This document shows, piece after piece, positions 32,385 to 47,150 of a stretch of DNA of 64,000 nt; positions within the stretch are counted from its first letter, which is position 1, and every line of letters starts with the position of its first letter. The notes under the pieces are model-generated. The model searched no databases, was not told the origin of the DNA, and saw only the letters and a list, made by a program, of their open reading frames with translations. Origin of the DNA: a virus (Duplodnaviria > Heunggongvirae > Uroviricota > Caudoviricetes); IMG/VR virus record IMGVR_UViG_3300027798_000013. One strand, written 5' to 3'. The position numbers and the translations under genes were made by a program.

Positions 32385-32385
32385 T

Positions 32386-33159
32386 ATGAAAATAATAATT
32401 GCAGGATACGGATTTGTTGGAAAGGCAGTGGCCAGTGCGTTGCAAACCAAACACGAACTGGTCATTATCGATCCAAAATATAACAGTAATCGAATCACTG
32501 ACCATATAGATGCAGATGGCATTATTGTTTGTGTATCTACTCCAACTACTGAAAATGGAATTTGTGATGCGAACAACATTGCCAATGTGTTAGATCATGT
32601 TCCATTTTTCATGCCTGTTATGATTAAAAGCACATTGACTCCTCCTAACGTGCAGGGCTTTAAAGAAGTTTACGAAAATCACAGCATTGTTTACAGTCCA
32701 GAATTTTTGCGGGCCAACAGTGCTGAGGCGGATTTTGTTAATCAAAAATACATTATTGTGGGCGGAGAAGATCCAGAAGGATTTTGGCACGAATTATTCA
32801 CCACTACATTGCCTAATTGCAAAATGATTTTTCAATGCAGTGAAGAAGAGGCATGCATGATCAAATATACTGTGAATTGTTTTCTTGCTCTCAAGGCCAG
32901 TTACTTTAATCAAATAGCTGATATTTGTGATAACAACAAAATGGACTACGATATTGTAAGACATATTGTAGGTCAGGATACACGCATTGGAGCAGGACAT
33001 ACACTGGTTCCAGGGCCAGATGGACAGCGAGGATGGGGAGGTGCATGTTTTCCCAAAGATACTGAAGCATTTTTAAAGTGGTCTAACACAATTGGAATGC
33101 CAGCAACATTGGTAGAATCATCTATCCAATACAACAATAAAGTAAGAAAAAACTCTTGA
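32386..33159 (+). CDS. ugd: UDP-glucose/GDP-mannose 6-dehydrogenase-like protein, short form
   Basis: IAGYGFVG, VCVSTP, IKST, YSPEFL, K..N.FLA, GWGGACFPKD; start reassigned to 32386. Confidence 0.85.
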   Translation: MKIIIAGYGFVGKAVASALQTKHELVIIDPKYNSNRITDHIDADGIIVCVSTPTTENGICDANNIANVLDHVPFFMPVMIKSTLTPPNVQGFKEVYENHSIVYSPEFLRANSAEADFVNQKYIIVGGEDPEGFWHELFTTTLPNCKMIFQCSEEEACMIKYTVNCFLALKASYFNQIADICDNNKMDYDIVRHIVGQDTRIGAGHTLVPGPDGQRGWGGACFPKDTEAFLKWSNTIGMPATLVESSIQYNNKVRKNS

Positions 33160-33184
33160 CTTTAAACAAAAACCTAAATATAAT
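33156..33184 (+). promoter_or_regulatory. Composite promoter: sigma70 with embedded TAAATA
   Basis: TTGACT-N17-TATAAT; TAAATA at 33175-33180. Confidence 0.75.
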
Positions 33185-33202
33185 ACACATAAGGAGATTC
33201 AT

Positions 33203-33934
33203 ATGAAAGATATTTTACAGGACTTAGTAGCACACACGCATAGTCTAGGATTTTTACCGCTAGTTAAAATTTCTAGCACAGACCAAGAAACAGTTATCGA
33301 AGGCATGGCAGAAGACCGTAGCGTTATTTTGCAGGCCAAAACAAATGCGCCCGTCAGTAATTTTGAAGGCACGTTTGGTATGCCTAACTTGAACAAGTTG
33401 GATTTGCATTTGAAGTGTCCCGAATACAAAGAAGGCGCAAGCATTGAAGTGGTTACACAACAACGCAACGGCGAAGATATCCCAACAGGCCTGCATTTTG
33501 AAAATGCATTTGGCGACTTTAAAAACGACTATCGTTTTATGAATGCTGAAATTATCAATGAACAAATGAAAACTGTCAAGTTCAAAGGCGCAAGTTGGAA
33601 TATTGAATTCGAACCCACTGTGGCTAGTATTCAAAAGTTGAAATATCAAGCGGCCGCGCACACTGAAGAAACAACATTCCAAGTAACAACTAAGGATGAC
33701 AACTTGATTTTTAGTTTCGGTGATGCAACAACACACTCTGGTAATTTTGTATTCCAAGCAGGAGTTACTGGTAAACTAAAACAAACTTGGGCATGGCCAG
33801 TTAGTCAAGTACAAAGCATTTTGAACTTGAGCGGCGACTGCACAATGCGTATCAGTGATGCAGGTGCATTGCAAATTACAGTAAACAGTGGATTGGCTGA
33901 ATACAATTACATTTTGCCAGCACAAGCTAAATGA
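33203..33934 (+). CDS. Sliding clamp / polymerase processivity factor (gp45/PCNA-like)
   Basis: 243 aa, alternating beta-rich pattern; replication context with polB and clamp loader. Confidence 0.65.
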   Translation: MKDILQDLVAHTHSLGFLPLVKISSTDQETVIEGMAEDRSVILQAKTNAPVSNFEGTFGMPNLNKLDLHLKCPEYKEGASIEVVTQQRNGEDIPTGLHFENAFGDFKNDYRFMNAEIINEQMKTVKFKGASWNIEFEPTVASIQKLKYQAAAHTEETTFQVTTKDDNLIFSFGDATTHSGNFVFQAGVTGKLKQTWAWPVSQVQSILNLSGDCTMRISDAGALQITVNSGLAEYNYILPAQAK

Positions 33935-34095
33935 GCCAAGTAGATCCAAAAATACTCGAATTGGAAAGACAGATACAGTTCTTGAAGGAACAAGTTATTC
34001 GTCTTTCTACTCGTGTAGAGTATTTAGATAGAGAACGAGTTCGTTCAAAAAATGAGATAGGTCAGATCGTGCATGAAGTACGATCACGGAAATAG
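33931..34095 (+). CDS. Small coiled-coil protein, 54 aa (not in ORF track)
   Basis: MSQVDPKILELERQIQFLKEQVIRLSTRVEYLDRER...; ATGA overlap. Confidence 0.65.
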   Translation: MSQVDPKILELERQIQFLKEQVIRLSTRVEYLDRERVRSKNEIGQIVHEVRSRK

Positions 34096-34096
34096 A

Positions 34097-34300
34097 ATGG
34101 AAACTAAAAAAAGAACAGTGGTGAGAATGCTTACATACCGGTTAACGGCATGGTTGTTCACTATCGTCTGGACATATTTGTTCACAGAAGATATTACTAG
34201 TGCTACAGGATTTGCCACAGCATTACATGTTCTTTTAAGTGTAGACTATTATATTCATGAAAGAATTTGGTTAAAAATAAAGTGGGGCAAAATTGAATAA
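34097..34300 (+). CDS. DUF2061-like small membrane protein
   Basis: METKKRTVVRMLTYR...YYIHERIW.KIKWG; start reassigned to 34097. Confidence 0.7.
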   Translation: METKKRTVVRMLTYRLTAWLFTIVWTYLFTEDITSATGFATALHVLLSVDYYIHERIWLKIKWGKIE

Positions 34301-35990
34301 GAACCTAACAGCACATCAGAGCGATTACGCATACTTCTTGCCAGCAACAAGTGGTTTTTACAGCACGTACATAGGTAAACAGCGTTACAGCAACTATGTG
34401 GATCCTGCTCGTATTCCTGCGAGCTTTGGCCCTATGGGCGTTGAAGCTATGAACTATTTGAATCCCAATGCGGCATTTTACTTTGACCATTGTTTGTATT
34501 CAGCTGGACATGCTAACTTGGACTTGACTAAACCAGACCCGAGTGAAGATATGTTTCGTAATAGAGACCGTAGCACCAGTTGGGTGCTAGGCGACTCTGG
34601 AGGTTTTCAGATTGGTAAAGGTGTGTGGGAAGGCGAATGGAATGATCCAACTGGGCCAGTAGTTGCACAACGTATGGCCGAAGCAGTTGCAAAAGGCATT
34701 GAACTAGTGCCACAAATGCATCCAACTGGTCATCCTAAAACAGATAAAAATGGCAATCCCAAGTATACTAAAGTTGATCATGTTAAAGTGTATCAAGCCA
34801 AACTGGATGCGGCACAAAAGAAACGTGAACAAGTATTAACTTGGATGGATGCTCTCATGGACTATGGCATGGTGCTTGACATTCCAGCATGGGTCGGTCG
34901 CAGTCCGGTTGGTGCTAAGAATAGTGGAGTTGCCAGTTACGACCAAGCTGTTAGTGCAACCAAATACAATAACGAGTACTTTATTAAACATCGTACAGGT
35001 GCTTGTAAGTTTTTAAATGTATTACAGGGCGAGAATCACGCACAGGCAGAAGATTGGTATCAGCAAATGAAAGACTTTTCCGATCCAACAAAATATGAAC
35101 GTCCGTTCAATGGTTGGGCCATGGGTGGCCAAAACATGTGTGATGTGGATTTAGTTTTAAGAAGATTAGTGGCATTGAAGTTCGATGGACTCCTTGAAAA
35201 GGGTCATCAAGACTGGATGCACTTCCTAGGCACCTCTAAGTTAGAGTGGGCATTGTTATTAACTGACATACAACGAGCTATAAGGAAATATCATAATGAA
35301 AACTTTACCATCTCTTTTGACTGCGCCTCACCGTTCCTTGCCACAGCAAACGGTCAAATCTATGTCCAAACAGAAATCAAAGACAGAGAAAAATGGCTCT
35401 ACCGAATGTTGCCGTCTCTTGATGACAAAAAGTACAGCCAAGATACACGACTCTTCCAAGATGTAGTTGTTCAGGATAAACACTTTATCAGTTTTACTAC
35501 AAGTCCAATGATGGACGGGGTAGAGGTTAAAGACATTTGTATCTACGGTCCAAATGACGTTAACAAAATTGGTAAGATAGGAAAGACCAGCTGGGATAGT
35601 TTTACTTACGCAATTATGATGGGTCATAATGTTTGGTTACATTTGAACAGCGTACAAGAAGCTAATCGCCAATATGATGCTGGACTATGCCCAAGTATGC
35701 TGGTAGATGAAAGATTCAATCGTACATACTTTAAAGATGTTGTCGATGCTATCTTTAGTACAGACGACAGAGCTATTGCTGAAGGGATTATCGAAGCATA
35801 TAGTAAATTTTGGATGGCTATTCCCGGCACACGTGGTGCCATTGGTAAGAAAACAGTTAACGCTAGTACTATGTTTTCCACTCTCTTTGACGAAGTAGAG
35901 GAAGATAGTGTACAATTAGAAGAAGAAGTAGATTTTGACACTGATAAATTAGATGACTTGGAAGCACAATTACATCATGACATTACCTGA
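34293..35990 (+). CDS. dpdA: TGT-fold guanine transglycosylase, DpdA-like (7-deazaguanine insertion into DNA)
   Basis: DSGGFQ, VLDIP, NVLQG, AMGG, HFLGTS, SFDCASP align with TGT active-site motifs; no tRNA-TGT CxCxxC zinc motif; folE and queE are nearby. Confidence 0.75.
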   Translation: MNKNLTAHQSDYAYFLPATSGFYSTYIGKQRYSNYVDPARIPASFGPMGVEAMNYLNPNAAFYFDHCLYSAGHANLDLTKPDPSEDMFRNRDRSTSWVLGDSGGFQIGKGVWEGEWNDPTGPVVAQRMAEAVAKGIELVPQMHPTGHPKTDKNGNPKYTKVDHVKVYQAKLDAAQKKREQVLTWMDALMDYGMVLDIPAWVGRSPVGAKNSGVASYDQAVSATKYNNEYFIKHRTGACKFLNVLQGENHAQAEDWYQQMKDFSDPTKYERPFNGWAMGGQNMCDVDLVLRRLVALKFDGLLEKGHQDWMHFLGTSKLEWALLLTDIQRAIRKYHNENFTISFDCASPFLATANGQIYVQTEIKDREKWLYRMLPSLDDKKYSQDTRLFQDVVVQDKHFISFTTSPMMDGVEVKDICIYGPNDVNKIGKIGKTSWDSFTYAIMMGHNVWLHLNSVQEANRQYDAGLCPSMLVDERFNRTYFKDVVDAIFSTDDRAIAEGIIEAYSKFWMAIPGTRGAIGKKTVNASTMFSTLFDEVEEDSVQLEEEVDFDTDKLDDLEAQLHHDIT

Positions 35991-36222
35991 CGAACGATAT
36001 CGAGCAGTAGTACAGACTCAACGATTTTTATTACAGATCTTAACTACTCCTCGAGTTCCAAAAGCAATTAAAGATCAAGCAAGAAGTTGTTTACGTCATT
36101 ATCCCAGCGACTGGGATATGAAACGTGCGGCTGAAGGTGCTCCAGACATATTCCAAGAACAGATGGAAGCTGTAACCCGTTTGTTTAAATCCTACGAGGA
36201 AAAGAAAAATGAGCAAGCGTAG
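35977..36222 (+). CDS. Hypothetical protein
   Basis: MTLPDERYRAV...; start reassigned to 35977. Confidence 0.7.
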   Translation: MTLPDERYRAVVQTQRFLLQILTTPRVPKAIKDQARSCLRHYPSDWDMKRAAEGAPDIFQEQMEAVTRLFKSYEEKKNEQA

Positions 36223-37093
36223 TCTAGTAATTGGCATGGGTATTGGTAACTTGTACAAAGATGTACTGACAAAACTTGGACACACTGTTGTTACTGTTGA
36301 CCAAGATATTAGTAAAAAAGCAGACTTTGATTCTGTTGATAAAGCATTACTAGTACACGGCTTATTTGATACTGCTCATATCTGTACTCCTAATTTTACA
36401 CACTTTGAAATTGCGGCCAGAGTTGCTCCACATAGTAAAATTGTGTTTATTGAAAAACCAGGAGTTGCCACTAGCGATACTTGGACTAAACTTGTAACTG
36501 AATTTAAACAAACACGTTTCATAATGGTTAAAAACAATATGTGGCGTAGTAACATAGAAGAATTAAAAACTCTAGCCAGCCAAGCTAAGACTGTAAAAAT
36601 ACGTTGGATTAGAAAGAATTGTATTCCCAGTCCCGGTAGTTGGTTTACAACTAAGAAGTTGGCGTTTGGCGGAGTTAGTAGAGACCTAATGCCACACTTG
36701 TTGAGTTTGTATGTGGCTATGAATTCTGATTGGAAACATGAAACGGTATCTGGGCAAACTGCCATGCAATGTTGGGAATTAACGGATATCGAAAGCACTG
36801 AGTACGGCACTGTCAATCCCACTGGTACATACAACGTTGATGACATGTGCGTGATTAACTTTGGTAACAAATGGCGGTTAGCGGCCAATTGGCGTAGTCA
36901 GGACGAAGAAGACAGTTCCATTGTGTTTGTCATGCCAGATAATAAGATAGAACGATTTGAATTGGGATGGTGCCCGGAAGAGGCATACCATAATATGATC
37001 GTGGATGCTGTTGCTAATATGGACAATTCCGATTTCTGGTTACAGCAATATGCCGTTGATACTTGGATCCATGAGAGAATAGAAAAACTATGA
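36209..37093 (+). CDS. Gfo/Idh/MocA-family NAD(P)-dependent oxidoreductase
   Basis: VIGMGIG Rossmann motif, HICTPNFTH, FIEKPG. Confidence 0.8.
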   Translation: MSKRSLVIGMGIGNLYKDVLTKLGHTVVTVDQDISKKADFDSVDKALLVHGLFDTAHICTPNFTHFEIAARVAPHSKIVFIEKPGVATSDTWTKLVTEFKQTRFIMVKNNMWRSNIEELKTLASQAKTVKIRWIRKNCIPSPGSWFTTKKLAFGGVSRDLMPHLLSLYVAMNSDWKHETVSGQTAMQCWELTDIESTEYGTVNPTGTYNVDDMCVINFGNKWRLAANWRSQDEEDSSIVFVMPDNKIERFELGWCPEEAYHNMIVDAVANMDNSDFWLQQYAVDTWIHERIEKL

Positions 37094-37989
37094 CACGCTG
37101 TTTACAAACAACAGGGCAAGGCTACTTTGAAGAAGTAGAGTACGACAAACCAGCACCCGCTTCAGATCAAATTGAAGTAAGAGCTGTAATGACTGGTGTA
37201 TGTCGCAGTGACATTGATATGATGATGGGCGACTTTGGACCATTGCCACTCAGTATGCAAGGGCATGAAGGATTAGGACAAGTTACACGAGTTGGTTCAT
37301 TAGTTACCGGTGTTAAAGAAGGCGACTATGTTGCCACACGTGGTGAACCTGCGTATGCGGATTATTATAATGTTCGTGATAAAGAGTTTGTAGTAGTACC
37401 AGAAGCTGATCCACGTTATATTATCGAACCGGTAGCATGTGGTATCAATGTGGTAGAGCAAGCGTGGCACGAAATCAAACAACGGTCGCAGGGTAAAGTA
37501 TTGATTTTGGGCAGTGGTTTCCTTGCTTGGGTGGCTTTTCACAGATTGAATACCTATAGTACTGGTACTAAGATAAAACAAATTGACGTACTAGGTTCTA
37601 GCAATATTGAACTGTGGAGTGATAAACTATTGGTTGGTACCAGCGAAAGTTATGACGTAGTTATTGACTTGGGTGGAAAATATTCTTTAGGTATAGATAT
37701 TAACCTAAATAACAATGCTCTTATTATCGACGGTATTGGTAAAGCAGTAAGCAGAGAAGAAGCACAGGCACAACTTTGGAAAGCCTGTACTACAGTTCGG
37801 CCAAGCCCACGTACTGATGGCTTTTTCCAATGTATGAAAGATGCAGTATGGATGATTGAAAACGGTTATCTCGAGGTTGATAGTTTTTGGACTCGGTGTT
37901 ATAATCGTAACACTGAATGGCAACAAGCGTTTGCGGATGGTAGGGATCGTCCAAGCGATTACAGCAGAGGTTATATCAAATGGGACTAA
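37090..37989 (+). CDS. Zinc-dependent medium-chain (MDR) alcohol/polyol dehydrogenase
   Basis: GVCRSD, GHEG.G.V..VG..V..VKEGD.V, IIEPVACG, ILGSGFLA; lacks the structural-Zn Cys4 lobe. Confidence 0.85.
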   Translation: MTRCLQTTGQGYFEEVEYDKPAPASDQIEVRAVMTGVCRSDIDMMMGDFGPLPLSMQGHEGLGQVTRVGSLVTGVKEGDYVATRGEPAYADYYNVRDKEFVVVPEADPRYIIEPVACGINVVEQAWHEIKQRSQGKVLILGSGFLAWVAFHRLNTYSTGTKIKQIDVLGSSNIELWSDKLLVGTSESYDVVIDLGGKYSLGIDINLNNNALIIDGIGKAVSREEAQAQLWKACTTVRPSPRTDGFFQCMKDAVWMIENGYLEVDSFWTRCYNRNTEWQQAFADGRDRPSDYSRGYIKWD

Positions 37990-38495
37990 ACACTGAACAA
38001 CGACAAGGCGTCGTTTACTTTACAGGTTATGAGGTCGAGCATACTATTTGTCATGGTATGTTCACATTGTTTGTTGTAGGTACACCACCTATTGAAGAAA
38101 TTCTTACAAAAGCAAAAGACGCTGATGTAAAACATATCTACTTTGGTACAAGCCAAAGTTTTAATCCAACGGCAATCAGCCACGAAGAATATAAAGCGTG
38201 GGATGACGTTATTATGGGCTGTCTAAAAGCAGACTACTGGGTATCACTAGACTTTGGTGTTGAACACATCGAAGGTGTATTGGAATCCGCATATAACGAA
38301 TATCCTCGCTTTGTCCCTATGATTAGTGTCAAATTACCTTACATTAATCAACTCAATTACAATGCCACACTTAAACTGGACGACCGAACTTGGGGTGCTA
38401 CAAATCCAGGCGTGTGGACACATCACTTACAGAGCTTGATGAGTAAAGACAAGTATACTCATTGGGATCAGTACACTCAAGATACAACATTATGA
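37980..38495 (+). CDS. Conserved phage protein of unknown function in the deazaguanine locus
   Basis: FTGYEVEHT...TLFVVG...HIYFG..QSF...NPGVW. Confidence 0.75.
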   Translation: MGLNTEQRQGVVYFTGYEVEHTICHGMFTLFVVGTPPIEEILTKAKDADVKHIYFGTSQSFNPTAISHEEYKAWDDVIMGCLKADYWVSLDFGVEHIEGVLESAYNEYPRFVPMISVKLPYINQLNYNATLKLDDRTWGATNPGVWTHHLQSLMSKDKYTHWDQYTQDTTL

Positions 38496-39007
38496 GTAAA
38501 AGTTTCATACTGTATTTGCACAATGATCTATCAGGAAATCCTGATTGGAAAAAACTTGGTAAGGCAATGACTCCGTATTCGGCAGTACGCAGTCGACAAA
38601 AAAATTGTTCTGAAAAGTTTTATCTCAATCATGTTTTTTTAGGAGATCCAGTACACATAAACTTCCTTGAAGAGACTTTTAAACGTGATTTTTATGTGTA
38701 TTCCGGTACACATATTAATAAAATAAGTGGGCAAACTGAACTTTTTAAAATGCCAGAAGATGCTATACTACTAGAGTTATCTAAGATAATTGAGAATTAT
38801 AAATTGCATGTTAAGAAAGTAGAGTTGGATTATCCATATTCTGCATGTAATAGCGGAGAATGCCCGCTTAATATTCCTTCGGAAGCAAATTCATATTCCT
38901 TTTTAAGAGATAAAATTATTAAAACTTGGGGTGTTTGTTCTAATACAGTTTCTAAAAAAATGTATAGAGCAGATTCATATTTTAACTTACTATTTGAAAC
39001 AACATGA
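38492..39007 (+). CDS. AT-rich hypothetical protein, possibly T5orf172/GIY-YIG-like
   Basis: Start reassigned to 38492; KKLGKA..P....RSRQK pattern; visibly more AT-rich than neighbours. Confidence 0.5.
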   Translation: MSKSFILYLHNDLSGNPDWKKLGKAMTPYSAVRSRQKNCSEKFYLNHVFLGDPVHINFLEETFKRDFYVYSGTHINKISGQTELFKMPEDAILLELSKIIENYKLHVKKVELDYPYSACNSGECPLNIPSEANSYSFLRDKIIKTWGVCSNTVSKKMYRADSYFNLLFETT

Positions 39008-39399
39008 TTATTAAACAAGACATCCGCCCTAACAAAATGATCTGGGTTACCTTTCGTAAAGAAGGTATTCATTGTTACCCGGCCGCGGCCACAGATCCTA
39101 ACCTAGCAACAGGAGATCAATATGATGTATCGTTTTTGGCTAATCCTCATCGCCATATTTTTCATTTCAGGGTATGGCTTAGTGTCACCCACAATGACAG
39201 AGATGTGGAATTCATTCAATTCAAGCGATGGCTTGAACAACTGTATTCTAGCACACAAAATATTTTGTCGCTAGATCATAAGAGTTGCGAAATGATGTCA
39301 GACGAACTTTATGGCATGATTTCCAATAAGTATCCAGGCCGTGAGGTCTGGATTGAAGTCTCCGAAGACGGAGAAAATGGTTCTTTTATCAAATACTAA
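39004..39399 (+). CDS. T-fold QueD-like protein (DpdL-like candidate)
   Basis: LANPHRHIF (LxxxHRHxF) instead of the QueD CxxxHGH; SCEM and VSEDGENG T-fold motifs. Confidence 0.7.
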   Translation: MIIKQDIRPNKMIWVTFRKEGIHCYPAAATDPNLATGDQYDVSFLANPHRHIFHFRVWLSVTHNDRDVEFIQFKRWLEQLYSSTQNILSLDHKSCEMMSDELYGMISNKYPGREVWIEVSEDGENGSFIKY

Positions 39400-39411
39400 T
39401 AAGAAGGCTTT

Positions 39412-39681
39412 ATGGCTAAAAACTACAAAGAAATTAATTATTTCGAAACCCGCCCTGACATTGTTAAGATCTTCGGTGATCTTGAAGCATTGTTGGATTT
39501 TTGTAGAATCGAGTTGCTTGCGTACAACGAAGCAGACTTGTATAATAGAGAAAGCCATGTGTGGCGCTCTTTTGAAAACAGCCGTCGTCCTAAGAAGGCA
39601 TGGACTGGCGAACGTAAACCGTACTTGGGCAAAAACCCTCGTCCACAAAATACGTTCAACAAGCCACGTTTTAACAACTAA
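39412..39681 (+). CDS. Hypothetical basic protein
   Basis: ORF with RBS-like GAAGG; operon context. Confidence 0.7.
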   Translation: MAKNYKEINYFETRPDIVKIFGDLEALLDFCRIELLAYNEADLYNRESHVWRSFENSRRPKKAWTGERKPYLGKNPRPQNTFNKPRFNN

Positions 39682-40776
39682 ATGACAATCTTCTTAGTTG
39701 ACTTGGAATCAGTTGAGACTAGGTACACGGGTCAGTGGAAGACTCATGTACCTGCTTTACTTAAAAAGGCAGGACACAATGTTCAAATTATCTCTGGCCC
39801 TGAGGATATTCCTACAGCCACTACTCCTGGTGCTTTTCTTAATTTTGGTGGCACCAATATATACAAGTCTCGGCAGGTTGAGCAAATGGGCCGTTTATTT
39901 TGTAGCGGATCCGTTCATCCCGGCGACCACTTTATTTTTACTGACGCTTGGCATCCGGGCATTATAAACTTAAAGTATATGAGTGAGCTGTTGCAGATTC
40001 CAGTAACCACACATGGCCTTTGGCATGCTGGTTCATACGATCCTCAAGATTTCTTAGGACGTATTGTCGGGCCTAAGAAATGGGTAAGACGTGCAGAACA
40101 AAGTTTCTTTCACGGATTTGATCATAACTATTTTGCTACTGAATTCCATGTGAAATTATTCTTTGACGAATTGTTACACAACGGTGCTCCTAGCGAAAAC
40201 CCCTGGTATCACGAGGACTGGGAAGAACGTTACGAAAACGGAAAAATTGTACGTAGTGGTTGGCCAATGGAATATATGGATCATACGTTGGATCTTTACA
40301 AGAGCATGCCAAAGCGTGATCTTATTTTATTCCCGCACCGGATTGCTCCAGAAAAACAAGTTGAAATTTTCCGTGACTTGGCAACACACTTGCCACAATA
40401 TGAATTCGTAGTATGTCAGGATCAACAATTAACAAAAAATGAATATCACAACTTGCTAGGTGAAGCTAAAATGGTATTCAGTGCTAACTTGCAAGAAACA
40501 CTGGGTATTAGTTGTTACGAAGGCGCAGTAGTTGACGCTATCCCATTGGTGCCGGATAGACTTAGTTATACAGAAATGTATTATGATACATTCAAGTATC
40601 CTAGCGTATGGACTGAAAGTTTTGAAACGTACGAAGTTTATCGACAAGATTTATGTCGATTAATTATCGAACATATGGCTAATTACAATACACGTATTCC
40701 ACAGATTCGTAAACAGACACACCTTTTAACTGAAAACTTTTTCTCAGCACATGCATTGTTAGAAAGATTAAAATGA
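39682..40776 (+). CDS. GT-B glycosyltransferase (GT4-like)
   Basis: FPHRIAPEKQ and E-x7-E motif (QETLGISCYEG). Confidence 0.8.
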   Translation: MTIFLVDLESVETRYTGQWKTHVPALLKKAGHNVQIISGPEDIPTATTPGAFLNFGGTNIYKSRQVEQMGRLFCSGSVHPGDHFIFTDAWHPGIINLKYMSELLQIPVTTHGLWHAGSYDPQDFLGRIVGPKKWVRRAEQSFFHGFDHNYFATEFHVKLFFDELLHNGAPSENPWYHEDWEERYENGKIVRSGWPMEYMDHTLDLYKSMPKRDLILFPHRIAPEKQVEIFRDLATHLPQYEFVVCQDQQLTKNEYHNLLGEAKMVFSANLQETLGISCYEGAVVDAIPLVPDRLSYTEMYYDTFKYPSVWTESFETYEVYRQDLCRLIIEHMANYNTRIPQIRKQTHLLTENFFSAHALLERLK

Positions 40777-41210
40777 TACTTGAACTGTTAGAACGCTTGG
40801 ATCGCAAACGCATCATTATGGATCGTCAGTGCAACGAGCCGTTACTAACACGCTATTATTTGTTTTTGAAAGAACGTAAGAATTTTCCATTCAACGTGTT
40901 CTTACACAAGTTTCACAAAGGTGATCCTGGCGATGTGCATGATCATCCATGGCCCTATTTTACATTAATACTGGCAGGCGGTTATTACGAATGGATACTT
41001 AGCGGCAACTGTGAAGTACGCAAATGGCGTGGGCCTGGACACTTTAGATTTTGTAGTGCTACAAGTTATCACCGTATTGAATTAAAATCAGATGTTACGC
41101 CCTGGACGTTGTTTATACCAGGGCCACATAAACGAGAATGGGGATTCCTCGTTAATAAAAAATGGATACATAATGAGTTATACTTATACGACAAACAACA
41201 CAACGGCTAA
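40773..41210 (+). CDS. Cupin (RmlC-like) domain protein
   Basis: LHKF...D..DVHDHPW.Y..LIL.G.Y.E...YHRIEL. Confidence 0.7.
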   Translation: MILELLERLDRKRIIMDRQCNEPLLTRYYLFLKERKNFPFNVFLHKFHKGDPGDVHDHPWPYFTLILAGGYYEWILSGNCEVRKWRGPGHFRFCSATSYHRIELKSDVTPWTLFIPGPHKREWGFLVNKKWIHNELYLYDKQHNG

Positions 41211-41697
41211 TACCGGCACTGACTCTTCAACTGGTTACGGTGCAATTCCGCCGTTAACTACTTCTCAAGTGTTTACAATTAATACTGGCGCAGGCGGCGC
41301 TGGCAATGCTAGTATATTTGGCAGTGCTGGTGGCGCTGGTAATATTACACTAAATGGCGGTAGCCACATTTATACTAGTCCCACTGTAAGTATGGGCGGC
41401 AGTAGTGGTCAGATTTATACAACTACAGGTACCAACGGTGTAAATTGGGCTAATTCAAATGACAATGTTATGATTGTCAAACAAACTCCACCAGAATTAG
41501 AAGTTAAAGGTCGAATGGTTATCAACGGTAGAGACTTGGAAGAACGGTTAAAGACAATTGAAAAAGTCTTGAGTATTCCCGAAAGAGATGTTATACTTGA
41601 AAAGAAACATCCAAAGTTAAAAAAACTGTATGATGAATACATTGCGGCATTGGGAAAATACAGAACATTTGAAGCAATCAAAGGCGAAGATGAATAA
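41173..41697 (+). CDS. Gly/Thr-rich hypothetical protein
   Basis: Start reassigned to ATG 41173 (MSYTYTTNN). Confidence 0.65.
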   Translation: MSYTYTTNNTTANTGTDSSTGYGAIPPLTTSQVFTINTGAGGAGNASIFGSAGGAGNITLNGGSHIYTSPTVSMGGSSGQIYTTTGTNGVNWANSNDNVMIVKQTPPELEVKGRMVINGRDLEERLKTIEKVLSIPERDVILEKKHPKLKKLYDEYIAALGKYRTFEAIKGEDE

Positions 41698-42208
41698 AAT
41701 TTATTACACATGGCAACAAGTAGAAGGTGCTTGTTTAGACATAGCTAGACAGATTCGTGCTAGTGACTGGGAACCGGATTACATCGTAGGTATTGGCCGA
41801 GGGGGATTGATCCCTGCTAATTTGTTAAGTCAGTATATGGGTATTAAAATGTCCAGTTTAGATATTAGTTTACGTGACGGTGGCGATACTGTCAGCAACT
41901 GTGGCATGGCTGAAGATGCTTTTGGATACAATGCGGCGGGAGTCGGTGATCCATGTTGTAAAAATATTCTCATTGTTGATGATATCAACGATCAAGGTTC
42001 GACTATTGCCTGGATCAAACAAGACTGGCAATCCAGTTGTTTGCCTAACGATGCTCGCTGGTCGCATGTGTGGGGACAGAATGTTCGCTTTGCTACACTT
42101 ACTAACAATCTCAGTAGCAAAGAAGATGTAGACTATTCCGTATGGGAAGTTAACAAAGCAGAAAAAGATTGTTGGCTAGTTTACCCTTGGGAGGATTTTT
42201 GGCTATGA
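41690..42208 (+). CDS. Purine phosphoribosyltransferase (XGPRT/Gpt-like)
   Basis: YYTWQQV, IVGIGRGGLIPA, ILIVDDINDQGST PRPP loop, WLVYPWE; start reassigned to 41690. Confidence 0.8.
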   Translation: MNKIYYTWQQVEGACLDIARQIRASDWEPDYIVGIGRGGLIPANLLSQYMGIKMSSLDISLRDGGDTVSNCGMAEDAFGYNAAGVGDPCCKNILIVDDINDQGSTIAWIKQDWQSSCLPNDARWSHVWGQNVRFATLTNNLSSKEDVDYSVWEVNKAEKDCWLVYPWEDFWL

Positions 42209-42405
42209 AGATTTTTTTAAAATTTATTTTAGGTGTTGCTATTCTAATAGTAGCAGTGGCAGTCGGACCAATCTTAATGATTTGGTCATTGAACACGCTA
42301 TTTCCAACATTGGCAATTCAATACACATGGGAAACTTGGACCGCGGCTTTCTTGCTATCTGCGCCGTTTGGTAGTGGCTTGTTCAGGAAATCCAAAAAGG
42401 ATTAA
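42205..42405 (+). CDS. Small membrane protein
   Basis: Two hydrophobic helices; start reassigned to 42205. Confidence 0.65.
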   Translation: MKIFLKFILGVAILIVAVAVGPILMIWSLNTLFPTLAIQYTWETWTAAFLLSAPFGSGLFRKSKKD

Positions 42406-42406
42406 T

Positions 42407-42592
42407 ATGACCCCGGAAGAAGAGAGAGATCATCTTGAGAAAAAGATTCAACAAGTAATATTAGATATCGATCTGCTTAGACAAAAAGGCACTGACGATA
42501 AAAAACTTAATGTTATGATACTTTATCAAGAGTATCTCGAGGACGAACTCAAAAGACTACAAATAAAGTTGAACGGGGTTGGCAATGGGTGA
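42407..42592 (+). CDS. Hypothetical coiled-coil protein
   Basis: MTPEEERDHLEKK; start reassigned to 42407. Confidence 0.6.
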   Translation: MTPEEERDHLEKKIQQVILDIDLLRQKGTDDKKLNVMILYQEYLEDELKRLQIKLNGVGNG

Positions 42593-42854
42593 CGGTGGAA
42601 AGGGAAGTAAACCTAGACCATTTAGCGTTAGCCAAGATGAATTTGCTAACAATTTTGAAAATATATTTGGTAAAAAGGATAAGGACATGCAAGTAAGAGT
42701 AAAAGAAGATCCAAAAGAATTTGGCAAGTGCGGTTGTGGTCGTAGCCCAAGTGGCTACTGTTGTGGTTGGCATGGGCTGACCGAAGAACAATATGCAGAT
42801 CGCAAAGAAAAATACGAAACAGGCAAACAGGATCTGAGTGGAAAAGACATTTAA
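42579..42854 (+). CDS. Small protein with CDGSH-like Fe-S/Zn motif
   Basis: KCGCGRSPSGYCCGWH. Confidence 0.55.
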   Translation: MAMGDGGKGSKPRPFSVSQDEFANNFENIFGKKDKDMQVRVKEDPKEFGKCGCGRSPSGYCCGWHGLTEEQYADRKEKYETGKQDLSGKDI

Positions 42855-43044
42855 TCGAATTGTGGTGTTGTGGGATAATCAAAACGGATTCTGGTGGAAT
42901 GAAACATGTGCTATGGTATTAGAAGTGTTTGGACTGCCTGGAGATCGTTACGAATCCAGACCATCACACGATGCTATGTTTTTTGATTTTAAAAATAAAA
43001 AAGATGCTGACTTATGTCGTATCTTATTAAGTGAGAGATTATGA
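42838..43044 (+). CDS. Hypothetical protein
   Basis: GTG-start ORF overlapping both neighbours. Confidence 0.6.
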   Translation: MEKTFNRIVVLWDNQNGFWWNETCAMVLEVFGLPGDRYESRPSHDAMFFDFKNKKDADLCRILLSERL

Positions 43045-43604
43045 TAGTATTTCAAAATCAGTGGGAAACATTTGAATCTTTTGATTTTGATAATTTAATC
43101 ACAGCCGCAGATCAAAAATCAGCAATGGCTGATATTAGAGCTATTATAGATTCTGGCAAATACTTTACCAATAGTCCTAGATATCAAACTAATGTAAATG
43201 TGTTTGGACAATATGGCGAACATTGGATGAAATTTAAAATGAGTTTCATCTTCAGTTGTTTTATGTATTTGAAAGAAGAAGTAAAGATCGATCAAATACA
43301 ATCTTGGAGTTTTATGACTTCAAACAAAACAGTTGAAGATAGAGATAAACTTTGGCATACACACCAATATGGTAGCGAAAGAACACTGTCGGGTATATAC
43401 TACTTGCATATTCCAGATGACATTACAGATATGAATACTTGTGGAACTGAGTTTGCTATAAACGGTTTGGATGATCCAGAACGCTTTACAGTCAAACCCG
43501 AACAGTACAAGTGGTTGATTTACCCAGGAAAAACTTGGCACAGACCTTGCCCGCCGCAGTCTAGTCAGGATCGATTTGTAATTGCGGCAGACATGGTATT
43601 TTAA
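43041..43604 (+). CDS. Putative 2OG-Fe(II) oxygenase
   Basis: WHTHQ...LSGIYYL.IP...GTEF...LIYPG..WH.P...RFVIA.D. Confidence 0.65.
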   Translation: MIVFQNQWETFESFDFDNLITAADQKSAMADIRAIIDSGKYFTNSPRYQTNVNVFGQYGEHWMKFKMSFIFSCFMYLKEEVKIDQIQSWSFMTSNKTVEDRDKLWHTHQYGSERTLSGIYYLHIPDDITDMNTCGTEFAINGLDDPERFTVKPEQYKWLIYPGKTWHRPCPPQSSQDRFVIAADMVF

Positions 43605-43614
43605 GGAGAATTAT

Positions 43615-43848
43615 ATGTACCACGAAAGTTTAGATGTTAAAGAATTTGTTGTCAAAGAAAGTGCTGGCTTCTGTGTGCGTGTTCGTACACACGAAGTAAT
43701 TTCTCCAAAAGGATTGTACAGTTTAGATTTTATCCAAGAAAGTTTGAACGATAAAGGCGAAGTACAGTCTGATCAAACTTATAATTTTTTCATGACAAAA
43801 GATGAGGTCCGGACTCTATGCAATGGTCTAATGTCAAACGTTATCTAA
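43615..43848 (+). CDS. Hypothetical protein
   Basis: AAGGAG RBS; start reassigned to 43615. Confidence 0.7.
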   Translation: MYHESLDVKEFVVKESAGFCVRVRTHEVISPKGLYSLDFIQESLNDKGEVQSDQTYNFFMTKDEVRTLCNGLMSNVI

Positions 43849-44036
43849 GCAGTTTACTCATTGTAATAGTCATTACAATAGTGTTTATTATCCCTGTTAT
43901 ATTCTTATCCATACCAAAACCAGAAGGTGTTTGGATCAATTGCGGAGTCAGTGAAATTAGTCCCGATTTCACTACAGAGATGCGTGAAGCATGTAGACAA
44001 CTTCGAGCAACAAATAACTTGCAAAAACCTAAATAA
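43818..44036 (+). CDS. Small membrane-anchored protein
   Basis: N-terminal TM; C..SE..PD......ACR. Confidence 0.6.
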   Translation: MQWSNVKRYLSSLLIVIVITIVFIIPVIFLSIPKPEGVWINCGVSEISPDFTTEMREACRQLRATNNLQKPK

Positions 44037-44047
44037 ACCTATATACT
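44019..44047 (+). promoter_or_regulatory. Composite promoter: sigma70 with TAAATA in the spacer
   Basis: TTGCAA-N17-TATACT; TAAATA at 44030-44035. Confidence 0.7.
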
Positions 44048-44066
44048 ATACACATAGGAGTAATAA

Positions 44067-44804
44067 ATGACTGAATCCGTAACGTATAACAACATAGACG
44101 ACAAAGGCTATGAAGAAACTAACCTAGCAGATGCTATTCGCTTTAAAATGAAGCGTGATGGTAAAAGGTTTTGGGCTGGCGATAACGTCAGTGATTATCT
44201 ACACGAAGATGATAAAAACATTCTAATTGAAGAAGCAACAATAGCTTTTGAAAAAGTATTGGATACTCTACTAATTGATAGAGAAAATGATCCAAACAGT
44301 AAAGGTACAGCTCGGCGTCTAGCCAAGATGTACTTCAACGAAATTATGGAAGGTCGTTATGTTCCAGCACCAGATGCAACAGCATTTCCAAATGACTCTG
44401 CAGATCGCTACGAAGGCATGCTCGTGGTTCGCAGTGAGCTACGGTCCATGTGCTCTCATCATCACCAGCCTGTGGTTGGGGTTGCCTACATCGGTATCAT
44501 TGCCGCTAATAAACTCATTGGTCTTTCTAAATATACTCGTATCGCACAATGGTGTGCTCGTCGAGGAACACTACAGGAAGAACTCTGCAACGACATAGCC
44601 CGTGAAATCCAAAAAGCCACAGGAGCAGAAAACTTAGGTGTATATATTCAAGCCACACACGGATGTTGTGAAAATCGTGGTATTATGGCACACAGTAGTC
44701 TGACACAGACCACAGTACTAACTGGTTCGTTTAAAACTGATCCGGGTGCTAAGAAAGAGTTTTTTGATAATATTAAATTACAACAGGAGTTTGCCCCAAG
44801 ATGA
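44067..44804 (+). CDS. folE: GTP cyclohydrolase I
   Basis: TARRLAKMY, SMCSHH, GLSKY.RI, LQEEL, HGCCENRG. Confidence 0.95.
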   Translation: MTESVTYNNIDDKGYEETNLADAIRFKMKRDGKRFWAGDNVSDYLHEDDKNILIEEATIAFEKVLDTLLIDRENDPNSKGTARRLAKMYFNEIMEGRYVPAPDATAFPNDSADRYEGMLVVRSELRSMCSHHHQPVVGVAYIGIIAANKLIGLSKYTRIAQWCARRGTLQEELCNDIAREIQKATGAENLGVYIQATHGCCENRGIMAHSSLTQTTVLTGSFKTDPGAKKEFFDNIKLQQEFAPR

Positions 44805-45016
44805 CAACAGCCCAAGAACTAACTGATCAATTGATCAACCGTGCAAAAAATTTACAAGAGTTTGTGGTTCAACGTGAGTGGGAAGAAATCCCAGCAGGCG
44901 TTGTTCGATTTAATATACAGCACACACAAGGACATCTTGCTAGAATTTTCGTGCCTGCTCTCACACAATCAGAAGCAGAATCTATGGTCAATGAATGGTT
45001 TGAAGAGGAAGTATAA
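44801..45016 (+). CDS. Hypothetical protein
   Basis: ATGA overlap with folE. Confidence 0.7.
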   Translation: MTTAQELTDQLINRAKNLQEFVVQREWEEIPAGVVRFNIQHTQGHLARIFVPALTQSEAESMVNEWFEEEV

Positions 45017-45189
45017 TGGACCCTAAACACCTGTACACATTTAGATGGACACAGCCGTACTCAACATACCGACAACGTCCGTATTTGCGTAGCCAGCATG
45101 AAGCATACGAACAACTAGTCGAACGGTTCCTTGAAGATGGTAATTTTAAAGAAGCAAACATAGCAATAGAAAGAATAATGAAATTATGA
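45016..45189 (+). CDS. Hypothetical protein, 57 aa (not in ORF track)
   Basis: MDPKHLYTFRWTQPY...ERIMKL; TAATG and ATGA overlaps. Confidence 0.6.
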   Translation: MDPKHLYTFRWTQPYSTYRQRPYLRSQHEAYEQLVERFLEDGNFKEANIAIERIMKL

Positions 45190-45506
45190 ACTGGTTTAAA
45201 CGAATAATAGTCAAGTGGGTACGTGAGGATTGGGAAAATTCTGGACGAGTTCCGCAGGAAGATTGGGACCCAAGTACCAAAATGAGTCGTGGCAATTCTA
45301 TCAGCACTATCAGTGGTCGTGCCAATGTTGACAGCGAGCCCACACTTCAATTCAAAGTGTACAGTGCTGTGGGCGGAAAGATTGTGGAGTTTAGTCGCTA
45401 TGATCCAAAGTCTGACAGAACTGACCGTCAAATTTATATTATTGGCAAGGAAGAAGACTTTGGCGAAAAGATTGCTAAAATTTCAACATTAGAGGCGCTA
45501 CGATGA
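45186..45506 (+). CDS. Hypothetical protein
   Basis: Operon-coupled ORF. Confidence 0.7.
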   Translation: MNWFKRIIVKWVREDWENSGRVPQEDWDPSTKMSRGNSISTISGRANVDSEPTLQFKVYSAVGGKIVEFSRYDPKSDRTDRQIYIIGKEEDFGEKIAKISTLEALR

Positions 45507-45892
45507 ACACACAGGTACCAGCAGAAGGCATAATGAAAACAAACGATTGGGGAGACAGCAGAGTCTATCGAATTGCTTGTAATTGTGGTGATGAAAATCA
45601 CAATCACAACATGTGGGTGGAAGCAGATGATTGTGACATTGTTGTAACCATTTATACCACAGGCAAAACAAACTGGTGGAGTAAAACACGCTGGTATCAC
45701 ATTTGGACATTGTTAACCAAAGGTTATATTGATACTGAATCCACTGTACACTTAACCAAACAACAAGCACTTAATTATGCTGAAACTTTGAAAAGTGCCA
45801 TTGATGATCTCGAAGCTTTTCGTAATGCTAGACAACACAACGAAGAACGTGCTACAATAAAAAAAATGGCAAATGAACAGGATTGTGTATGA
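45503..45892 (+). CDS. Hypothetical protein (CxC..H motif)
   Basis: YRIACNCGDENH. Confidence 0.7.
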   Translation: MNTQVPAEGIMKTNDWGDSRVYRIACNCGDENHNHNMWVEADDCDIVVTIYTTGKTNWWSKTRWYHIWTLLTKGYIDTESTVHLTKQQALNYAETLKSAIDDLEAFRNARQHNEERATIKKMANEQDCV

Positions 45893-46743
45893 GCAAAATT
45901 AAAATAGCGGAACTGTTTTACAGTATCCAAGGTGAAGGACGCTACATGGGCGTCCCGTCTGTGTTTCTACGCACATTCGGTTGTAACTTCAAATGCGCTG
46001 GCTTTGGTATGCCACGTGGTGAAATAAGTCACGAAGCAACTGACATTGCGGCCACACACAAAATGATTACGCCGTTTACAACATATGAAGAACTTCCTTT
46101 GGTTTCTACGGGCTGTGATAGTTATGCTAGTTGGCATCCTGATTTTAAAGAACTTAGTCCAATGCTCACTTCAGAAGCAATCGCCGACAGAATCTCGGAA
46201 ATTATTCCATTTGGAGAATGGCGAGACGAACACTTAGTTATCACAGGCGGTGAGCCCTTGTTAGGTTGGCAACGTGCTTATCCAGACTTGATTAACAACA
46301 CCAAGATGCGCGGATTGAAAGAAATTACATTTGAAACAAATGGTACTCAGAAACTTACACCAGAATTTAAAGAATACTTGAGAAAGTGGAACAGTGTAGT
46401 AGGTAGAGAACTTACATTTAGTGTAAGTGCCAAACTGCCATGTAGTGGCGAAGTGTGGGAAGAAGCTATCCTTCCAGAAGTGGTTTGTGAATACGAACAA
46501 GTTGGCACAGCATATTTGAAGTTTGTTATTGCCACAGAACAAGACTTTGCTGATGCTGAGTGTGCTATTGCGGCATATCGTACAGCAGGATTTAAAGGAC
46601 ACGTTTATCTGATGCCAGTAGGCGGTGTAGAAAGTGTATACGCAATGAATAATAAAAACGTAGCAATACTGGCTATGAAAAACGGCTTACGTTATAGCGA
46701 CAGATTACAAGTGCCGTTATTTAAAAATGAATGGGGTACTTAA
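45889..46743 (+). CDS. queE: 7-carboxy-7-deazaguanine synthase (radical SAM)
   Basis: ELFYSIQGEG, FLRTFGCN, VITGGEPL, FETNGT, SAKL, YLMP, RLQV; start at 45889. Confidence 0.9.
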   Translation: MSKIKIAELFYSIQGEGRYMGVPSVFLRTFGCNFKCAGFGMPRGEISHEATDIAATHKMITPFTTYEELPLVSTGCDSYASWHPDFKELSPMLTSEAIADRISEIIPFGEWRDEHLVITGGEPLLGWQRAYPDLINNTKMRGLKEITFETNGTQKLTPEFKEYLRKWNSVVGRELTFSVSAKLPCSGEVWEEAILPEVVCEYEQVGTAYLKFVIATEQDFADAECAIAAYRTAGFKGHVYLMPVGGVESVYAMNNKNVAILAMKNGLRYSDRLQVPLFKNEWGT

Positions 46744-47150
46744 TGAAAAAGTTTATACAAAAGATTTTTGGTATTACAAAGTTAATTGAAGAAAAGGACT
46801 TAGCGTTAGCTGAAGCAAGCAAAGCTAAGGAAGCAGAAGAACATGCTAAAATGTCTCCAAAAGAACGTGCTAACAAAAGAAAAGAACCGTGGGTAGCTGT
46901 ACTAGAAACGCATGTTAACAAAGATAATCCAGCAAATGGATTTTTTGAGCTTGACTGGAATGAATATTTTGTGCTACAATTAAGACAAGCAGGTTACGGT
47001 TACGAAGGTGATACTGATGAATTGATTGTTGACTTGTGGTTTAAAACACTAGCACGTAACATGCTTAGTGATGAGGGTTTGGATTTGAATCGTAGTCAAG
47101 GTTTTATTAATGTTCAGAAACTGGACGCAAACAGATCGGAAATTGGATGA
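46743..47150 (+). CDS. Hypothetical protein
   Basis: Start reassigned to 46743 (MKKFIQKIFG). Confidence 0.7.
   Translation: MKKFIQKIFGITKLIEEKDLALAEASKAKEAEEHAKMSPKERANKRKEPWVAVLETHVNKDNPANGFFELDWNEYFVLQLRQAGYGYEGDTDELIVDLWFKTLARNMLSDEGLDLNRSQGFINVQKLDANRSEIG

Follow-up and report, generated by a model that had tools for sequence, protein, structure and literature searches.

Which DNA base does a phage make when genes of the 7-deazaguanine pathway are interleaved with genes for sugar enzymes, and would that base carry a sugar? The question is raised by a plus-strand gene cluster at positions 32,386 to 46,743 of a 64,000-nucleotide stretch of DNA (hereafter the window) from a Caudoviricetes virus, IMG/VR record IMGVR_UViG_3300027798_000013. 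The original prediction, made from the letters alone, had proposed a new hypermodification system whose product would be a glycosylated or otherwise oxidized or reduced deazaguanine. The genes that it named, for a DpdA-like transglycosylase, a Gfo/Idh/MocA oxidoreductase, a Zn-dehydrogenase of the medium-chain dehydrogenase/reductase (MDR) type, a 171-aa protein, a glycosyltransferase (GT), a purine phosphoribosyltransferase (PRTase), FolE and QueE, all lie where it had placed them, as judged by the table of open reading frames (ORFs) and by family and fold matches. Its coordinates missed one gene of a sugar type, which encodes a UDP-glucose-dehydrogenase-like (UGDH-like) protein just upstream of position 33156. 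Our explanation as a whole, to which we give about an even chance, is an early-gene module that would swap guanine for 7-deazaguanine in the phage DNA and then, most likely, decorate the new base with a sugar. Deazaguanine genes of the type found in Cellulophaga phage phiST are known; new here is a GT4-like enzyme, together with sugar-oxidizing enzymes, wired into such a gene set, and this arrangement predicts a sugar-bearing purine.

Genes for the 7-deazaguanine base

Insertion of the base would fall to the 565-aa product of the gene at 34293..35990 (+), which we accept as a putative DNA guanine transglycosylase, DpdA, in a long form related to DpdA3. The assignment draws together a fold of the tRNA-guanine transglycosylase (TGT) type, intact motifs, a profile link to phiST DpdA3, and the deazaguanine genes that surround a homolog in Vibrio phage 2.275.O (queF, yhhQ, queC, a Gat-type amidohydrolase gene and folE). 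By direct search the protein matches nothing in Pfam (including PF01702), PHROGs or NCBIfam, nor in the PDB by sequence or with a 60-sequence profile. It contains the two catalytic-aspartate motifs of the TGT type, DSGGFQ at residues 101-106 and FDCA at 342-345, and an alignment of 60 diverse homologs leaves D101, S102, G104 and D343 invariant; we take D101 and D343 to correspond to the catalytic positions in Z. mobilis TGT numbering. The best 50 PDB matches to its AlphaFold2 (AF2) model (pLDDT 90.9) are all tRNA-guanine transglycosylases, at E about 1e-7, probability 1.0 and a template-modeling (TM) score by target of about 0.5. Iterated profile searching with jackhmmer (150 representatives) led from the protein to phiST DpdA3 (5e-12), to a "queuine tRNA-ribosyltransferase" of Xanthomonas phage BUDD (1.6e-24) and to a 424-aa protein of phage ACP17 that adjoins the GT (8.5e-29); these E-values are generous, as the database was small. 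Identity as a tRNA-guanine transglycosylase proper was rejected, since the CxCxxC...H zinc site of the tRNA enzymes is absent and no CxCxxC occurs anywhere in the sequence.

The nature of the scaffold turns on a gene that had been described as QueD-like. The 131-aa T-fold protein encoded at 39004..39399 (+) reads LANPHRHIF at residues 45-53, which fits LxxxHRHxF and not the CxxxHGH of QueD. The former motif in place of the latter defines DpdL, which is proposed to decarboxylate 7-carboxy-7-deazaguanine (CDG) to 7-deazaguanine (Cui et al., PMC10516641), and the founding DpdL, phiST CGPG_00067, aligns with the window protein at 34% identity over 92% of the query (tblastn, 1e-8). The signature and the homology make it a DpdL-type protein and a proposed CDG decarboxylase; a role as the QueD of the pathway was rejected, as the catalytic Cys is absent and relatives encode a separate QueD. 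Searched by sequence against the PDB, it gave nothing significant. FolE, GTP cyclohydrolase I, is encoded at 44067..44804 (+; PF01227 4.3e-38; phrog_2197 1e-43), and a QueE-like radical S-adenosylmethionine (SAM) CDG synthase at 45883..46743 (+), with a match to phrog_2076 at 2.7e-48 over residues 4-285 and a homolog in Pseudomonas jumbo phage PA5oct that is annotated as 7-carboxy-7-deazaguanine synthase. The cysteines of the QueE-like protein are spaced C-x3-C, about 39 residues, C, unlike the compact radical-SAM CxxxCxxC.

That queC, queF and gat-queC are missing from the window was confirmed: phmmer with phage examples of queC, queF, gat, yhhQ and canonical queD found none among six-frame window ORFs of at least 40 aa at E <= 10. 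Genome-wide content was judged from two near-complete relatives, G001 and G002, whose contigs measure 383 and 356 kb with completeness ratings of 100% and 96%. Both have a canonical QueD (PF01242 above cut-off, CxxxHGY motif) at a distance of about 45-65 kb from the locus, and neither has a QueC above cut-off. The recommended search beyond the window thus yielded QueD and no QueC, in relatives of the phage rather than in its own genome. Because the DpdL signature is present, and because QueD is found and QueC absent in both relatives, the predicted base pathway is of the phiST type, leading from FolE, QueD and QueE to CDG and onward through DpdL and DpdA. Lacking QueC, it cannot proceed to preQ0; the preQ0, ADG, G+ and preQ1 systems of other phages require QueC, QueC*, Gat-QueC or QueF, none of which is in the window. 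The idea of a locus for 7-deazaguanine modification of DNA, with a pathway that ends short of preQ0, holds, given DpdA, DpdL, FolE and QueE and no QueC, and we regard a DpdL-type deazaguanine DNA-modification module as very likely. CDG as the scaffold does not hold: since the "QueD-like" gene encodes DpdL, the scaffold is most likely unsubstituted 7-deazaguanine.

The gene set has in common with phiST, whose product is 2'-deoxy-7-deazaguanosine (dDG; PMC10516641), FolE, QueD, QueE, a DpdL with LxxxHRHxF, a DpdA3-related enzyme and the lack of QueC. It differs in that phiST has no glycosyltransferase, oxidoreductases or PRTase, has MazG adjoining its DpdL, and has a DpdA3 of 259 aa as against 565 aa for the window DpdA. 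Gene order within the clade was counted over the 27 related IMG/VR loci in which sequence extends 8 kb or more past DpdA, and a tblastn survey took in 83 loci. All 27 keep DpdA, an 89-aa ORF, Gfo/Idh/MocA, MDR, the 171-aa protein, DpdL, a second 89-aa ORF, GT and a cupin; the PRTase is kept in 23, the short UGDH-like gene stands directly before a clamp-like gene in 21, and FolE and QueE follow wherever the available sequence extends far enough.

A glycosyltransferase linked to dpdA and dpdL

The partner of DpdL and DpdA in this gene set is a GT4-like (Glycos_transf_1) glycosyltransferase, P0003, encoded at 39682..40776 (+). Of ten aligned diverse members of its family, five match PF00534 (best 6.8e-12) and two match PF20706 (GT4-conflict), and Atlas language-model features place the GT among PF00534 clusters at 0.96-1.0. 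The donor-binding residues R220/K225 and E272-x7-E280 are invariant in 22 homologs down to 30% identity, and the GT4-like enzyme very probably still transfers a sugar. Between the window GT and the solved T4 glucosyltransferases there is no detectable sequence similarity. In phages as well as bacterial islands the GT and DpdA genes are tightly adjacent, the stop codon of one often overlapping the start codon of the next. This would also suit a family that serves DpdA as a non-catalytic or otherwise acting partner (a scaffold, a DNA-binding or a base-flipping subunit) and transfers no sugar, and bacterial DpdA is known to require a partner, DpdB. We consider such a role very improbable: the invariant R/K and E-x7-E residues argue for retained glycosyl-transfer chemistry, and UGDH-like genes of sugar-nucleotide type recur beside the GT at varying positions across clades. 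Structure-based testing for a complex between DpdA and the GT gave a score of 0.00, which weighs neither way.

The GT adjoins DpdL, DpdA or both in at least six cultured phage lineages: PA5oct-like, Phosso, ACP17, BUDD, X1 and BCSR5. The order is DpdA-GT-DpdL in eleven PA5oct-like records, DpdL-GT-...-FolE-...-QueE in Phosso, QueD-FolE-x132-DpdA-GT-DpdL-QueE in ACP17 and FolE-...-GT-DpdA-DpdL-QueE in BUDD, and in X1 and BCSR5 tblastn matches to GT and DpdL lie 2-3 kb apart. A linkage scan over one genome per prokaryotic species (bacterial and archaeal contigs), with patterns built from GT motifs alone, returned 35 loci. Thirty of these have a DpdA-family ORF within 8 kb, mostly adjacent, and in 34 the GT is accompanied by one or more of DpdA, DpdL, QueE and FolE, the sole exception being a 2-kb contig. 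Co-occurrence of the GT with dpdA and dpdL, on which the original prediction was staked, is thus found both in the six cultured lineages and in 34 of the 35 GT-seeded loci.

GT loci on large contigs of isolates come from Pelagibacterium, Aurantimonas, Magnetospirillum, Shimia and Pseudooctadecabacter. In the bacterial chromosomes of Shimia ponticola (locus L116, 3700-13500) and Magnetospirillum aberrantis (L111, 4000-12900), the GT-DpdA pair is accompanied by a YhhQ/Vut_1-like transporter, MASE1 histidine kinases, an ABC-3C CTD6 protein, a CoiA-like nuclease and a second GT. To judge by these neighbors, such loci look like a defense-type island that would use the same modification pair. Xanthomonas PhiXhv phages encode distant GT homologs (25% identity) whose surroundings point to amino sugars and include no deazaguanine genes. 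The pattern is one in which the GT would be an optional decoration on a base pathway, by analogy with glucosylation on hydroxymethylcytosine. A ThyA-family hydroxymethylase (PF00303) is missing from G001, G002, ACP17 and BUDD, and among the phages compared only PA5oct has one, which excludes a T4-type acceptor for the lake-phage clade to which the Gfo-MDR pair described below is confined. We think it probable that the GT functions within the deazaguanine module.

Wroclawvirus PA5oct (EST35_0316-0322) shares with the window the order family-B DNA polymerase (PolB), clamp-like protein, DpdA (33% identity), GT (42%), DpdL (54%), an orf201-like gene, a PRT-like gene, QueE and RNase H, and its QueD is also located elsewhere in the genome. 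Its module is without Gfo/Idh/MocA, MDR, the 171-aa protein, the cupin and the short UGDH, and its DpdL reads HFH rather than HRH. PA5oct DNA resists G-site restriction enzymes and bears a modified G whose structure is not established (PMC12191111, a 2025 preprint).

A plainer account would have the locus make dDG, or the corresponding nucleoside of CDG (dCDG), in the manner of phiST, with the GT and the oxidoreductases acting elsewhere (on a virion or host protein, an envelope sugar or a small metabolite) and merely co-transcribed. DpdL homologs do occur without a GT in phiST and RHph_I1_18, and phiST DNA contains plain dDG throughout (PMC10516641). GT4 enzymes usually make envelope glycans, several GT homologs carry the JGI label "involved in cell wall biosynthesis", and the cupin family is widespread among phages. 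Such bystander genes would not be expected to behave as the GT does, however: seeding with the GT only returns DpdA, DpdL, QueE or FolE nearby in all but one locus, the loci so found include chromosomal islands of isolates with no phage replication genes nearby, and the GT stays beside DpdA or DpdL across phage lineages of otherwise different gene order. We judge this account unlikely, if by no means negligible.

Together with the two GT-free phages and the plain dDG of phiST, several further points weigh against a sugar on the base. The decarboxylase activity of DpdL is itself a prediction in the literature (PMC10516641). The sugar-on-base step is read from gene linkage only. P0003 itself has no Pfam match and, by sequence, no significant one in the PDB, and the profile of its family reaches no solved GT in the PDB significantly (only WlaC, at E 0.13). 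Some bacterial GT-DpdA pairs have no DpdL in the flank, which leaves room for an acceptor other than unsubstituted deazaguanine. Gfo, MDR and cupin proteins belong to broad families, and the roles assigned to them here are guesses. As to the chemistry, 7-deazaguanine has no hydroxyl, the acceptor atom could be N2, C7 or another, and GT4 enzymes are retaining O- or N-glycosyltransferases that are not known as C-glycosyltransferases. Weighing all of this, we put the chance of a sugar-bearing deazaguanine in the DNA at a little below even.

Putative sugar oxidoreductases of the lake-phage clade

On top of the core module, the window appears to add a clade-specific tailoring layer consisting of the Gfo-MDR pair, a domain-truncated UGDH-like enzyme and a cupin resembling cysteine dioxygenase (CDO). 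The short UGDH-like protein is encoded at 32374..33159 (+), with its likely start at ATG 32386 (PF00984 4.9e-22; PF03721 1.1e-10). Both the NAD domain and the central domain are present, the latter with the catalytic-Cys motif GGACFPKD, and alignments of the protein with UDP-glucose dehydrogenases in the PDB, at up to 2.4e-22, stop where the C-domain begins. PF03720, the C-terminal UDP/GDP-binding domain, is absent from the protein and from the whole of G001 and G002, and 70 of 71 near-full-length family ORFs in related loci span 260-299 aa from stop to stop. Identity as a full UDP-glucose or GDP-mannose 6-dehydrogenase was rejected on account of the missing domain. The consistent loss of this domain hints that the substrate is perhaps not a UDP-sugar; a sugar that another molecule already carries is one possibility. 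The position of the gene relative to the GT differs between clades. Three related loci of one subclade (L026, L027 and L030) have, at about 18300-19440, a second, divergent (34% identity) short UGDH-like gene just upstream of FolE; the PRTase is missing from them.

The Gfo/Idh/MocA protein, a clade-specific NAD(P) sugar oxidoreductase by family (36209..37093, +; PF01408 1.5e-7), has as its best solved relative DgpA (7xr9; 2.3e-8 over residues 45-215). We take DgpA to be a glycoside 3''-oxidoreductase of C-glycoside (puerarin) metabolism in a gut bacterium, oxidizing a sugar that sits on an aromatic aglycone. The similarity is distant only, and the Gfo/Idh/MocA family also acts on free sugars and NDP-sugars (nucleoside diphosphate sugars). 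The MDR/Zn-alcohol-dehydrogenase-like gene (37090..37989, +), whose start overlaps the end of the Gfo gene, is likewise clade-specific; it matches PF08240 (1.5e-10) in the GroES-like N-terminal domain only, and its match to alcohol dehydrogenases in the PDB is limited to the N-terminal 80 residues. The expected association of Gfo and MDR with dpdA is complete among the related loci (27/27) and goes no further than the lake-phage clade: the PA5oct, ACP17 and BUDD modules have no such pair, and the sister jumbo-phage contigs L098, L099 and L101, which are without it, mark it as an insertion in one subclade.

The cupin named in the original prediction is encoded at 40773..41210 (+). It is a clade-specific, thiol-dioxygenase-like protein with three His (HDHP...YHRIE) that matches phrog_4786, "cysteine dioxygenase", at 9e-34; the Atlas lead to CDO_I reaches only 0.78-0.82, and by sequence nothing significant was found in the PDB. 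The family label and the HDHP...H pattern make an oxygenase more likely than an RmlC-type sugar epimerase. Because they are absent from the PA5oct, ACP17 and BUDD modules, the putative dehydrogenases, the cupin and the short UGDH are a lake-phage-clade add-on and not core.

Proposed mechanism and comparison with known systems

In the mechanism that we propose, FolE and QueE, with a QueD encoded elsewhere in the genome, would turn GTP into CDG; DpdL would decarboxylate CDG to 7-deazaguanine, and DpdA would exchange guanine in DNA for this base. The GT would move a sugar from an NDP-sugar onto the deazaguanine, either on DNA after insertion, like the T-even glucosyltransferases, or on the free base before insertion, like HuiG; the two routes appear to us about equally probable. 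TGT pockets tolerate substituents at position 7 and bury the 2-amino group, so a sugar on N2 would be added after insertion and a C7-linked sugar possibly before. The short UGDH-like enzyme would then oxidize C6 of the sugar, and the DgpA-like Gfo/Idh/MocA enzyme with its coupled MDR reductase would oxidize and re-reduce a ring hydroxyl; remodeling of that sugar by these three enzymes we regard as doubtful. The finished product would shield G-containing sites from restriction and from other DNA-targeting defenses. Of the product first proposed, a glycosylated and possibly further oxidized deazaguanine is favored by the locus and its linked GT, a part for the 2-oxoglutarate (2OG) oxygenase falls away (see below), and the sugar on DNA is what we infer from gene linkage.

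Extended to all carriers of the pair, the mechanism makes a joint prediction, which we hold tentatively and at somewhat less than an even chance. Glycosylated 7-deazaguanine would occur in virion DNA of the lake clade and, in a simpler form, of PA5oct, ACP17, BUDD/X1, Phosso and BCSR5; in the lake clade the sugar would be oxidized or epimerized after its transfer by the UGDH-like and DgpA-like/MDR enzymes; and in bacterial defense islands the GT-DpdA pair would mark self DNA.

T-even DNA glucosylation is similar in that an NDP-sugar-dependent GT, for the window predicted to be of the GT-B class, is encoded with genes for a non-canonical base and protection from restriction is expected. It differs in that the window's phage would use no pyrimidine hydroxymethylase and its base would be a purine analog without a hydroxyl. 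That a 7-deazapurine base can be a GT acceptor has a precedent in huimycin, where HuiG glycosylates the 2-amino group of a free 7-deazapurine (PMC7439116). The huimycin and dapiramicin clusters (PMC7439116; bioRxiv 10.64898/2026.04.15.718813) likewise combine FolE, QueD and QueE with a GT; they differ in making preQ0-based secondary metabolites of actinomycetes, with QueC present and neither DpdA nor DNA involved.

The statement that known phage deazaguanine products are free of sugar is in line with the literature: eight deazaguanine DNA bases are listed, none with a sugar, and glycosyltransferases are not mentioned (Cui et al. 2023, PMC10516641). Our literature searches returned no report of a glycosylated or hexose-bearing deazaguanine in phage DNA. 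The mechanism, if true, would give the first sugar-bearing purine described in DNA and a new class of DNA hypermodification, and with it new enzymology in the form of a GT that acts on a purine analog or of sugar tailoring after transfer. The eight known phage bases have small substituents at position 7, and, to our knowledge, all glycosylated DNA bases described so far are pyrimidines (hydroxymethylcytosine, hydroxymethyluracil derivatives and base J). Such a base would be relevant to restriction, CRISPR, type IV and glycosylase defenses, to sequencing, and to phage therapy with PA5oct-like phages. Testing would be cheap, as the core module occurs in several cultured phages, one of which, PA5oct, already has a reported G modification.

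The phosphoribosyltransferase and other genes of the module

A 6-oxopurine PRTase of the xanthine/guanine type is encoded at 41630..42208 (+; PF00156 5.3e-14; NCBIfam xanthine PRT 5.6e-12; PDB purine PRTs 3e-13), and PA5oct EST35_0321 is a short homolog. Its simplest role would be to recycle the guanine released by DpdA to GMP and thence to GTP for FolE. It could instead open a nucleotide-level entry into DNA, in which the PRTase would join deazaguanine, or its glycosylated form, to phosphoribosyl pyrophosphate (PRPP), the product would be reduced and phosphorylated and then incorporated by PolB, the GT and oxidoreductases would act on the free base or nucleotide, and DpdA would have a minor or proofreading part. 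A 6-oxopurine PRTase is indeed kept in the module, the module is situated between PolB/clamp and RNase H, and in the tubercidin and toyocamycin pathways a PRTase ribosylates CDG or preQ0. Yet DpdA, DpdL and GT persist without the PRTase in the ACP17 and BUDD modules and in loci L026, L027, L030 and L063, and DpdA is universally retained with intact catalytic residues. Guanine salvage explains the PRTase more simply, and base insertion has been concluded to follow replication in every known deazaguanine phage (Cui et al., PMC10516641). We hold nucleotide-level entry to be improbable and keep to post-replicative exchange by DpdA.

The 171-aa protein (37980..38495, +) has an alpha/beta fold in its AF2 model (pLDDT 77) and invariant TNPGVW and K-x-DD motifs. 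A homolog lies directly upstream of DpdA in ACP17, which places the protein in the wider module. The model has no significant PDB match and one unnamed homolog among AlphaFold database (AFDB) clusters. Structure rows suggesting a partial barrel, a radical-SAM or a QueE-like protein were set aside as too weak to be evidence, and an Atlas lead to glycoside-hydrolase fragments (<=0.82) as chance level.

Two conserved 89-aa ORFs, at 35953..36222 (+) between DpdA and Gfo and at 39412..39681 (+) between DpdL and GT, are each present in 27/27 loci; the first has no Pfam or PHROG match and the second no family match. Another conserved ORF, at 41092..41697 (+) with its true start probably downstream of 41210, is linked by iterated profile to PA5oct EST35_0319 at 6e-12. 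Between the 171-aa protein and DpdL, a window-specific 181-aa ORF at 38462..39007 (+; likely start ATG 38492) has 0 tblastn matches in the 83 related loci and no Pfam or PHROG match. In relatives the corresponding site holds insertions of 0.2-1.2 kb, as if it were a hot spot for small mobile genes; the ORF is probably outside the pathway.

The 2OG-Fe(II) oxygenase-like gene expected in the locus is there at 43041..43604 (+), if by a weak match (PF13759, 26.8 bits against a cut-off of 27; phrog_81 5e-8). Its presumed role in the locus does not stand: it is found only in the window and L009, that is, in one of the 27 related loci, and it is therefore a passenger. The idea that it supplies the hydroxyl for glycosylation was rejected for the same reason.

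Host phage, gene order and distribution

The window has a G+C content of about 40%, and transcription runs on the plus strand nearly throughout until about 54 kb; the named genes are all on the plus strand, closely packed and frequently overlapping. Megablast of the locus against cultured phages gave no match at the DNA level. The order PolB, clamp-like, DpdA-like ... QueE, RNase H is common to the window, PA5oct and Sinorhizobium phage Phosso (469 kb), and this shared order, together with the near-complete relatives of 383 and 356 kb, places the window as a piece of an uncultured jumbo phage (about 350-380 kb) of an abundant clade. At least 594 IMG/VR loci hold a relative of the DpdA-like protein. 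Homolog searches at E <= 0.001 returned at least 7619 for DpdA and at least 8000 for the GT, and the relatives on genome contigs derive from lake and marine metagenome-assembled genome (MAG) bins; with homolog numbers this high, the product of the module, whatever its identity, is common in lake and marine viromes. In two word-indexed homolog searches, every relative returned had at least 74% identity.

The clamp-like gene at 33203..33934 (+; phrog_12062 2.3e-34) marks the conserved PolB-clamp-DpdA order; the annotations of its homologs read sliding clamp in Phosso and structural protein in PA5oct. Scans of 32000-48500 for promoters and terminators did not exceed shuffled expectation. Just upstream of the clamp-like gene, positions 33156-33184 hold a near-consensus sigma-70-type promoter (TTGACT, 17 nt, TATAAT; 11/12).

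Other genes of the window

Besides PolB, the window encodes RNase H/FEN, a ClpB-like ATPase and virion-type proteins; ARAGORN, run on the whole window, found no tRNA or tmRNA gene. The ClpB-like gene, at 16757-19042, encodes a full two-ring AAA+ chaperone of the ClpB/ClpA type (PF07724 3e-50). At 21316-23169 lies the gene for a 617-aa protein with a Zeta-toxin-like kinase domain (PF06414 5.5e-14).

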